From Escherichia coli (GTDB lineage Bacteria; Pseudomonadota; Gammaproteobacteria; Enterobacterales; Enterobacteriaceae): a stretch of DNA of 2,991 bases. The notes below the pieces were generated by a model. It saw only the letters and a program-made list of their open reading frames with translations, was not told where the DNA came from and did no database searches. This document shows positions 698 through 2,938 of the stretch, piece by piece. Position 1 is the stretch's first letter. Every line of letters begins with the position of its first letter. A program made the position numbers and the translations under genes. The stretch is from the NCBI RefSeq assembly GCF_003334335.1, contig NZ_QOWQ01000087.1; one strand, given 5' to 3'.

Positions 698-962
698 GAA
701 TCAAGCTCCTAGAAAGTGGTTGTGTTAACGTTTTGGTATCTTCCAGCTCGGGCCAAATATTCATCCAATCAAAAGGCCTTAGTTGCTGACGTGTAACTTC
801 ACCATTACTGGCTCGCTCAATAAGGACACATAACGATGCCCCTAACACTTGACCTTTACTCAATGCTTTTCTTAGATAACCGATGCTGGTATCACACTCG
901 CATGCAAACATACGCTGTTCATCTGACGAAAGAGAATTGAGAAATATTCTTAATTCTTCCAT
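681..962 (-). CDS. Cro-like HTH regulator of the YdaS/COG4197 type, first gene of the rightward-equivalent early operon
   Basis: 93-aa ORF. AAGGAG (973..968, minus strand) lies 5 nt upstream of ATG at 962..960. The protein has a C-terminal motif ...QQLRPFDWMNIWPEL... that I associate with the YdaS/Cro-like family. It is divergent from the repressor gene across a 100-bp operator-bearing spacer. Confidence 0.75.
   Translation of the reverse strand: MEELRIFLNSLSSDEQRMFACECDTSIGYLRKALSKGQVLGASLCVLIERASNGEVTRQQLRPFDWMNIWPELEDTKTLTQPLSRSLIHENQA
686..705. promoter_or_regulatory. Perfect inverted repeat CTTGATT-N6-AATCAAG centred on the ydaT-like start codon; candidate protein-binding dyad
   Basis: Sequence cttgatt ttcatg aatcaag at 686-705 has 7-bp perfect arms and a 6-bp spacer. 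It overlaps the ydaT ATG (695-697, minus strand) and sits next to its RBS. I recall a TTGATT-N6-AATCAA site being reported for YdaT-type proteins, but this is from memory and unverified. Confidence 0.4.
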
Positions 963-1062
963 AGCTACTCCTTAGTAAACACAGCAAAGAATACCCGCAG
1001 GTAAACAAAAGTCAATACCCACAGGTTGTTTACCTTGCGGTAATCGCATCTATTATTTACCT
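963..1062. promoter_or_regulatory. Divergent promoter/operator region between the Cro-like and repressor genes, with three TACC-N4-GGTA-type operator sites
   Basis: Sites TACCCGCAGGTA (992-1003), TACCCACAGGTT (1016-1027) and TACCTTGCGGTA (1031-1042). Candidate minus-strand promoter for the Cro-like gene: -35 TTGACT (1015..1010), 16-bp spacer, -10 TATTCT (993..988). Candidate plus-strand promoter for the repressor: -35 around TTGTTTACC (1026-1034), -10 TATTAT (1051-1056) ending 6 nt before the ATG, with no SD, suggesting a leaderless transcript like lambda PRM. Promoter calls are by eye only. Confidence 0.5.
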
Positions 1063-1482
1063 ATGGACAAATATGAATTTAGACGACAGCAACTCATCAA
1101 AATTCGTGATGAGAAATGCGATGGTAAAGCGGTTAACGTGGCCAGAAAGATCGGGCGCGAGCCTTCTTATGTATCAAGAATGTTGTACCCAGAGGGGAAA
1201 AAGGGAAAAAAACGGATCGCTGATGATATGGTGGAGATTATCGAAGAGTCCTTTGGGTTACCCCGGGGATGGATGGATGGTATCGTTTCATCATCAACGA
1301 ACACAGCCTCCAGTTATGAAACAAGGGTTCTAACGCCACGACAACGTATTTTTTTAGATCTCTTAGACGAACTGCCAGAAAGTGAAGCGGATAAATTATT
1401 AAAAACTCTTGAAGAGAAAAAACAGTATTACAATATGATCTACGAAGAAATCCGTAAAAAGAAAGCACAAAACGCATCATAG
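1063..1482 (+). CDS. Prophage CI-type repressor (DicA/RacR-like); N-terminal HTH and C-terminal helical dimerisation-like region
   Basis: 139-aa ORF divergent from the Cro-like gene. The N-terminal half contains the phage-repressor motif ...GKKRIADDMVEIIEESFGLPRGWMDG.... The C-terminal ...LTPRQRIFLDLLDELPESEADKLL... resembles the C-terminus of E. coli DicA as I recall it. No SD precedes the ATG, consistent with a leaderless repressor mRNA. Confidence 0.8.
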   Translation: MDKYEFRRQQLIKIRDEKCDGKAVNVARKIGREPSYVSRMLYPEGKKGKKRIADDMVEIIEESFGLPRGWMDGIVSSSTNTASSYETRVLTPRQRIFLDLLDELPESEADKLLKTLEEKKQYYNMIYEEIRKKKAQNAS

Positions 1483-1524: not shown

Positions 1525-1561
1525 TACCCATAGGTATTTACTTTTTAAATACCTATGGGTA
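1525..1561. promoter_or_regulatory. Perfect 14-bp-arm palindrome carrying two operator-type sites; candidate operator of the downstream early-left promoter and/or bidirectional terminator after the repressor gene
   Basis: Arms 1526-1539 (acccataggtattt) and 1547-1560 (aaatacctatgggt) are exact reverse complements with a 7-nt loop (acttttt). Each arm contains a TACC-N4-GGTA site (1525-1536, 1550-1561) matching the motif found three times in the 963-1062 region. The stem is followed by a T-rich tract, atccttcttttc. Location 43 bp after the repressor stop and about 190 bp before the next ORF. Confidence 0.5.
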
Positions 1562-2885: not shown

Positions 2886-2938
2886 TTTCTGGTGACGTTT
2901 GGCGGTATCAGTTTTACTCCGTGACTGCTCTGCCACCC
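2886..2938 (+). ncRNA. dicF: DicF small RNA homologue (prophage-encoded ftsZ-targeting sRNA), with its T-run immediately downstream
   Basis: Sequence tttctggtgacgtttggcggtatcagttttactccgtgactgctctgccaccc matches the 53-nt E. coli K-12 DicF as I remember it at 52 of 53 positions (K-12 ...ctgccgccc, here ...ctgccaccc), followed by ttttt. Genomic context fits the Qin order dicA - ydfABC - dicF - dicB: a repressor and small ORFs upstream on the same strand. Confidence 0.7.

Follow-up and report, generated by a model that had tools for sequence, protein, structure and literature searches.

The mRNA that phage lambda produces from PRM for its repressor gene cI is known to be leaderless. Further examples come from the prophages of E. 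coli. In dRNA-seq of E. coli K-12, five leaderless mRNAs were recorded in all, and three of these belong to the prophage repressors dicA, racR and ymfK (PMC4681348). For racR, the leaderless nature of the transcript from the strongest promoter, PracR3 (-10 element GAGAAT), was established by primer extension and by mutagenesis of the -10 element (PMC9638921). PaaR2, encoded by the cryptic prophage CP-933P of E. coli O157:H7, is likewise leaderless: transcription from its ATG was established by 5' RACE, translation from the same codon by N-terminal sequencing together with mass spectrometry, and its gene lies opposite ydaS-ydaT across an intergenic region of 97 bp (PMC8630535). The locus compared here with these systems encodes a short repressor divergently from a cro/ydaS-like gene. 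Its sequence suggests, with a probability of roughly 0.8, that the repressor mRNA begins at the start codon, ATG 1063, and is leaderless in the manner of lambda PRM.

The window, that is, the whole stretch of DNA analysed (2991 bp), is the immunity region of a lambdoid E. coli prophage. It is 100% identical to part of a chromosomal prophage in the E. coli strains JE86-ST05, JE86-ST02, UCPROB-001 and UCPROB-002, and a prophage of the enteropathogenic (EPEC) strain E2348/69 shares 97% identity with it over 89% of the window length. In E2348/69 (L222 1122-1242, corresponding to window 955-1075), the repressor and the junction between its promoter and ATG are both identical to those of the window; the cro-side -35 element is altered from TTGACT to TTGGTT by two substitutions, and E2348/69 may have a weaker lytic promoter as a result. 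The minus strand of the locus carries a replication O/P pair, the YdaT-family gene and a small 'transcriptional regulator', and the plus strand carries the repressor gene, a DUF1391 gene, more small ORFs and dicB, with an exonuclease and an integrase more distant on the plus-strand side. Several pseudogenes are present in the surrounding prophage. This gene order resembles the Rac and Qin regions of K-12, in which ydaS/ydaT or dicC stand on one side of the repressor and DUF1391, dicF and dicB on the other. In the full locus, the DicF gene lies 5' of dicB, the same order as in the Qin prophage. The region 3' of paaR2 differs, being occupied by the paaA2-parE2 toxin-antitoxin genes where the window's element has the DUF1391 gene, DicF and dicB. 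The features of the window are listed in Table 1.

Table 1. Features of the immunity region, with positions in the window and centres of the predicted operators counted from 1063 (for lambda, from the PRM start)
Feature	Position	Strand	Basis or remark
YdaT-family (CII-like) gene, 141 aa	272..697	-	phrog_163, CII-like activator, E 5e-47 (PHROGs)
cro/ydaS-like regulator gene, 93 aa	681..962	-	phrog_35, repressor/Cro-type (PHROGs)
GGAG Shine-Dalgarno of cro/ydaS-like gene	968..971	-	-8.6 kcal/mol; 5 nt before ATG 962-960
PR-like promoter of cro/ydaS-like operon (predicted): TTGACT (1015-1010), 16 bp, TATTCT (993-988)	988..1015	-	consensus scan
Operator 1, TACCCGCAGGTA	992..1003		centre -65.5 (lambda OR1 -66, annotated record); overlaps cro-side -10 and spacer; conserved in relatives
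Operator 2, TACCCACAGGTT	1016..1027		centre -41.5 (lambda OR2 -42); between both -35 elements; conserved in relatives
-35 element TTTACC, repressor (PRM-like) promoter (predicted)	1029..1034	+	consensus scan; overlaps left half of operator 3
Operator 3, TACCTTGCGGTA	1031..1042		centre -26.5 (lambda OR3 -19); overlaps repressor -35 and spacer
-10 element TATTAT, repressor promoter (predicted)	1051..1056	+	direct reading, consensus scan, weight matrix
ATG start codon, A1063 = predicted +1	1063..1065	+	seven bases past last -10 base
Repressor gene, 139 aa, WP_000362153.1	1063..1482	+	phrog_5736, transcriptional regulator, E 6e-70 (PHROGs); Xre-type helix-turn-helix N-terminal domain
Two more operator copies	1525-1536, 1550-1561		downstream of repressor gene
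DicF small RNA gene	2887-2938	+	Rfam RF00039, 70.1 bits vs gathering score 48

The repressor is annotated at NCBI only as 'hypothetical protein'. Some of its homologues are named 'putative phage repressor protein CI' by their sources. Its N-terminal ~75 residues recur at 50-80% identity at the N-terminus of many LexA/S24-family repressors of 220-240 aa from Salmonella, Klebsiella, Pantoea, Edwardsiella and Yersinia. The cI protein of the plaque-forming lambdoid phage mEp043 has an N-terminal domain 76% identical to that of the window's repressor. Relatives with the same N-terminal domain carry PF00717; for the window's repressor, the Pfam search returned no match and no S24 peptidase autocleavage domain, and a PDB sequence search gave only chance-level matches. 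Its C-terminal 50 residues (86-136) match the DicA family model (E 1.9e-5), and over its full length the protein scores 24.5 bits with the NCBIfam DicA model NF007257, below the curated cut-off of 101. In the AlphaFold model (pLDDT 85.6), N-terminal helices at 3-63 are followed by a linker that is disordered at 76-87 and by a helical hairpin at the C-terminus (92-137). The best Foldseek matches, at a borderline E of 1.4e-3, are PDB 5d50, the Rep repressor of a Salmonella temperate phage, and Xre-type helix-turn-helix proteins. The layout of DicA and PaaR2 is present, with a helix-turn-helix N-terminal domain followed by a helical C-terminus that contains an LTxxQ..LL..F..LPE motif. The repressor is a non-cleavable protein of the DicA/PaaR2 style that bears an mEp043-type DNA-binding domain.

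PaaR2 is a distant homologue of this protein (23% identity over 90 aa, pairwise BLAST E 5e-9) and shares its short, non-cleavable build, with a helix-turn-helix domain and a helical C-terminus. The paaR2 sequence was located via a published primer; its promoter, PRM933P, reads GATAAT-TACCAC-ATG, with a gap of 6 nt as in the window, and the intergenic regions are of similar size (100 bp in the window). The operators differ, as those of PaaR2 are GTTTAGTAA repeats, so that the immunity specificity differs from that of the window. The N-terminal DNA-binding domains of RacR (Rac), DicA (Qin) and YmfK/CohE (e14) show no sequence relationship to that of the window's repressor. For racR, 8 nt separate the PracR3 -10 element from the ATG, compared with 6 nt here, and two additional promoters are leadered.

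Upstream of the repressor gene, the sequence reads TTTACC, a 16-bp spacer, TATTAT, TTACCT (1057-1062) and ATG 1063. The -10 element ends six bases before the ATG, which places A1063 at the canonical +1. The combination of TTTACC and TATTAT has nine of the twelve consensus bases and is the sole promoter-like site that the consensus scan finds on the plus strand of the intergenic region. In a simple position weight matrix applied to the 60 nt upstream of the ATG, TATTAT scores 6.66 bits and the runner-up hexamer 3.72 bits. The preliminary description had named TATTAT as the best -10 candidate, with a transcription start at the ATG or a few nt from it, and the direct reading, the consensus scan and the weight matrix all return the same hexamer. 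When the predicted mRNA is folded at minimum energy, none of its first 26 nt is paired.

Promoter-like matches are not enriched in the window as such (3 vs 4.7 expected). The signal is the placement and conservation of the match, not the match itself. When the 100-bp intergenic region was shuffled with dinucleotides preserved, 11 of 5000 shuffles matched the promoter score with a -10 element 5-8 nt from the ATG. Geometry of the leaderless type occurs at one of the 117 ATG triplets on both strands of the window, namely ATG 1063. Both chance tests oppose the reading in which the promoter match is a coincidence and the gene is silent or the decaying remnant of a defective prophage. Some features of the locus would suit such a remnant, among them the pseudogenes of the surrounding prophage, the frameshifted copies of the repressor in E. 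coli (e.g. P0010) and the 'hypothetical protein' annotation. Set against them, over 60 viral contigs encode the 139-aa protein without any change, its 90% identity cluster has 543 member sequences, and operators and promoter are kept across genera, including in the plaque-forming mEp043. A silent or decaying gene is therefore regarded as very improbable.

The frameshifted alleles of the repressor that circulate in E. coli are probably inactive (P0010, P0013-P0017, P0019). These copies are called from ATG 1073 (window 1073-1333, plus strand, in another frame), and the normal frame is regained after ~40 residues.

The absence of a Shine-Dalgarno sequence before ATG 1063, also put forward in the preliminary description, is confirmed by duplex energies. 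The best duplex between the 20 nt upstream of the repressor and the 16S anti-Shine-Dalgarno has +1.9 kcal/mol, which amounts to no pairing, and no other gene among the 36 intact CDSs in the 27-kb locus has so weak an anti-Shine-Dalgarno energy. The GGAG of the cro-like gene served as the internal control for this test.

The start codon itself is well supported at the sequence level. ATG 1063 is the earliest possible start past an in-frame stop, with no other start in frame upstream, and the NCBI annotation pipeline, PGAP, selects the same codon. Leaderless translation in E. coli strongly needs AUG. The start codon is ATG in the window and in 93/93 relatives with 110 nt or more of upstream sequence. 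Across 32 aligned homologues, M1 never varies and D2, K3, Y4, E5, R7 and R8 hardly do, and the upstream extensions seen in a few homologues have no sequence in common. The downstream candidates Met40 and Met56 were rejected, as the predicted helix-turn-helix (helices 23-30 and 34-40) would be lost.

In many relatives (L096, L144-L166 and others), the -10 element reads TAAAATG and lies ~13 nt before the repressor ATG. This motif supplies an in-frame ATG three codons upstream that is used by gene callers, as in MRA-MDKYE... These observations bear on the possibility that translation begins at another codon, whether Met40, Met56 or a non-canonical codon upstream, on an mRNA with a leader. Gene callers do lengthen some relatives by 3-9 codons upstream; beyond this, no specific support for another start codon was found. 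The lengthened forms stem from the ATG within the -10 hexamer TAAAATG, and residues 1-8 (MDKYExRR) are conserved where the extensions of the relatives are not. ATG 1063 is moreover the first start past the in-frame stop, and a start at Met40 costs the predicted helix-turn-helix. Initiation elsewhere than at ATG 1063 is the least probable of the readings considered. If the mRNA is leaderless, the N-terminal extensions in relatives are probably annotation artefacts.

Conservation was assessed in relatives of the window. A first scan of viral contigs, over the full alignment, returned only matches 99-100% identical to the window's repressor, which were unusable for covariation. Relatives were gathered by exact-protein look-ups and by another scan that took an S24-type relative as its lead, giving 93 loci with the same DNA-binding domain, of which 72 had distinct upstream regions and 70 were kept after exclusions. 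The excluded loci, L091 and L093, are Klebsiella and Kluyvera remnants beside a host gene that are missing the standard operator layout. The 70 upstream regions place the single best -10 match of the 60 nt before the ATG at 6-7 nt from it in 57 cases, compared with ~4% expected by position; in most of the other 13, the hexamer near the ATG ranks as the second-best -10 match.

For a finer comparison, 69 sequences, related by descent and not phylogenetically independent, were aligned with TTTACC in operator 3 as the anchor. All 69 have their ATG 34, 35 or 36 nt from TTTACC, which corresponds to gaps of 6, 7 or 8 nt between the -10 hexamer and the ATG. Counted from the first T of TTTACC, positions 11-15 (GGTAA, part of operator 3) are 88-100% conserved, positions 16-22 are variable (0.04-0.7 bit), and positions 23-28 read T(.97) A(.97) a a A(.87) T(.86), i.e. 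TAnnAT. The bases between this hexamer and the ATG are variable and almost uninformative. From operator 3 to the ATG, the only conserved bases in the 69 relatives are those of the TAnnAT hexamer, 16 bp past TTTACC. The conservation extends over considerable divergence, as the stretch from promoter to ATG sorts the relatives into 13 sequence clusters with more than 30% difference between them. RNA polymerase prefers to initiate at a purine preceded by a pyrimidine, and the presence of a pyrimidine at -1 of the ATG in 64/69 relatives fits this preference. Since the gap is 7-8 nt in most relatives, some family members may have a leader of 1-2 nt.

Shine-Dalgarno strength before the repressor in the relatives averages -2.3 kcal/mol, and the cro-like gene has the stronger Shine-Dalgarno in 13/13 loci with an annotated cro-like gene. 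In a group of relatives (L203-L207), GAGGG or GGAGG abuts the -10 hexamer 14-19 nt upstream of the ATG, with anti-Shine-Dalgarno energies down to -10.6 kcal/mol. These motifs lie outside the canonical Shine-Dalgarno range and upstream of the predicted transcription start; they might act on longer or read-through transcripts.

The repressor and cro-like genes diverge from a 100-bp intergenic region with back-to-back predicted promoters at 1029-1056 on the plus strand and 1015-988 on the minus strand. The motif TACC-N4-GGTA, with one mismatch allowed, occurs six times in the window compared with 0.7 expected, and none of 200 shuffles reaches six. In addition to the putative operators in Table 1, the sixth match lies at 603, within the YdaT-family gene. 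Downstream of the repressor, at 1525-1561, the operator copies TACCCATAGGTA and TACCTATGGGTA form a perfect palindrome with a 16-bp stem, followed by a T-run. This palindrome scores as an intrinsic terminator on both strands and is probably OL combined with the terminator of the repressor gene. The same segment contains TTTACC-16-TTAAAT (1523-1550), which could be a weak PL-like promoter.

An operator-like sequence with two mismatches, TACCTATGGACA, at 1058-1069, covers both the ATG and the predicted transcription start; over its first 9 nt it does not differ from the operator copy at 1550-1558. This site was rejected as a fourth operator, as the count of such matches is not above chance (19 vs 9.2 expected) and it is absent from other lineages. 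Separately, the operator 3 region at 1033-1044, CCTTGCGGTAAT, matches lambda OR3, CCTTGCGGTGAT (L099, ~757-768), at 11/12 positions. This resemblance is probably a coincidence, the DNA-binding domains of the two repressors being unrelated.

The comparison with lambda is close at the level of the circuit. In both systems, the repressor and cro genes diverge ~100 bp apart, a tripartite operator covers back-to-back promoters, the repressor lacks a Shine-Dalgarno and cro has a strong one, and extra operators lie beyond the repressor gene. The promoter-ATG junctions, TAGATT-TAACGT-ATG in lambda and TATTAT-TTACCT-ATG in the window, share a gap of 6 nt. The differences concern the components. Unlike lambda CI, the window's protein belongs to another family, has no S24/LexA domain and ends in a DicA-like C-terminus; the operators are 12-bp TACC-N4-GGTA sites in the window and 17 bp long in lambda, and the CII analogue of the window is of the YdaT type. 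The operator layout expected from the preliminary description is found, with three intergenic and two downstream TACC-N4-GGTA sites and the centres of operators 1 and 2 near those of lambda. Its statement that the locus mirrors lambda cI expressed from PRM holds for circuit architecture, the first two operator centres and the 6-nt gap, and does not extend to the protein family, which is not of the CI/LexA type.

A further counterpart of the junction is offered by mEp043 cI, which has TTACC-N4-GGTAA operators and the promoter TTTACC-16-TAGAAT with a 6-nt gap to the ATG, as in the window. The proteins differ at the C-terminus: mEp043 cI and the related S24-type repressors have an S24 peptidase and are presumably RecA/SOS-inducible, where the window's protein has DicA-like helices. 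The same ~75-aa domain (MDKYE...) is thus found fused either to an S24 peptidase or to a DicA-like helical C-terminus (proteins P0031-P0116; L097 1501-2187). This represents a clear case of swapping of the repressor C-terminal domain with retention of operators and promoter. A search for a cI or operator mutation that would distinguish mEp043 from its clear-plaque derivative c-1 revealed no difference over 3.2 kb, and literature searches for transcription start site maps of E2348/69 and for regulation of mEp043 yielded nothing usable.

Leaderless expression from a maintenance promoter, as originally suggested for this repressor, draws inferential support from the promoter geometry, the missing Shine-Dalgarno and the conservation in 69 relatives. 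In the proposed mechanism, the gene would encode the immunity repressor and would be transcribed in the lysogen from a sigma-70 promoter formed by TTTACC, the 16-bp spacer and TATTAT. RNA polymerase would start at A1063 or within one base of it, giving an mRNA with AUG at its very 5' end and without a Shine-Dalgarno leader. This 5'-terminal AUG would be bound directly by a ribosome already loaded with initiator tRNA. We infer both the exact 5' end and the leaderless mode of translation. By analogy with lambda, the divergent cro/ydaS-ydaT promoter would be silenced when the repressor occupies operators 1 and 2. Operator 2 lies at the position from which lambda CI activates PRM and may have an activating role, and occupation of operator 3, over the -35 element, would lead to negative autoregulation at high repressor levels.

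A leadered transcript has to be considered alongside this mechanism. In lambda, PRE acts beside PRM during establishment and is no substitute for PRM in the lysogen. It could be argued that the window's repressor is expressed mainly from a longer mRNA, started at an upstream PRE-like promoter activated by YdaT/CII within the cro/ydaT region or at a weaker intergenic promoter as in racR, and that ribosomes initiate internally without a Shine-Dalgarno, for instance through S1 on the AU-rich stretch 1041-1062. A YdaT/CII-like protein is indeed encoded in the window, A+T reaches ~68% in the 22 nt before the ATG, two of the three racR promoters are leadered, and PRE in lambda and in CP-933P yields a long cI or paaR2 transcript (PMC8630535). 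The intergenic region has no other promoter-like site on the plus strand, and selection in the relatives keeps the -10 hexamer 6-8 nt from the ATG and no element resembling a ribosome-binding site. A leadered mRNA as the main source of repressor is accordingly judged unlikely. By analogy with lambda and CP-933P, a second, leadered transcript activated by CII/YdaT likely also exists during establishment, and extra leadered promoters could be present for the window's repressor, since racR has two. A leadered transcript is more likely an addition to the leaderless mRNA than an alternative to it.

A broader reading concerns the origin of the junction. The -35 element is half of operator 3, the -10 element is fixed 16 bp further on, and the ATG follows 6-8 nt later, which would leave no room for a leader. 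Leaderlessness might then be an ancestral, hard-wired trait of a mobile cassette of operators, promoter and DNA-binding domain that recombines onto S24 or DicA-like C-termini, and in the window's own lineage TACCTATGGACA could allow initiation to be blocked by the repressor itself. This proposal is speculative and rather doubtful.

Read as leaderless, the window's repressor is a further case of a well-described class, one that a specialist would expect, and the result opens no new question. It would fix the true start codon of a protein now annotated as 'hypothetical', and flags the N-terminal extensions of its relatives as probable gene-calling artefacts. Additionally, the 69 relatives provide natural variants of one predicted leaderless promoter/start junction, which may be used to study how the distance from -10 element to AUG (6-8 nt) affects translation. 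The pattern of leaderless repressors in E. coli phages and prophages, represented by lambda cI, RacR, DicA, YmfK and PaaR2, would in this way be extended to another widespread immunity type, found in the model EPEC strain E2348/69 and in many viral contigs.
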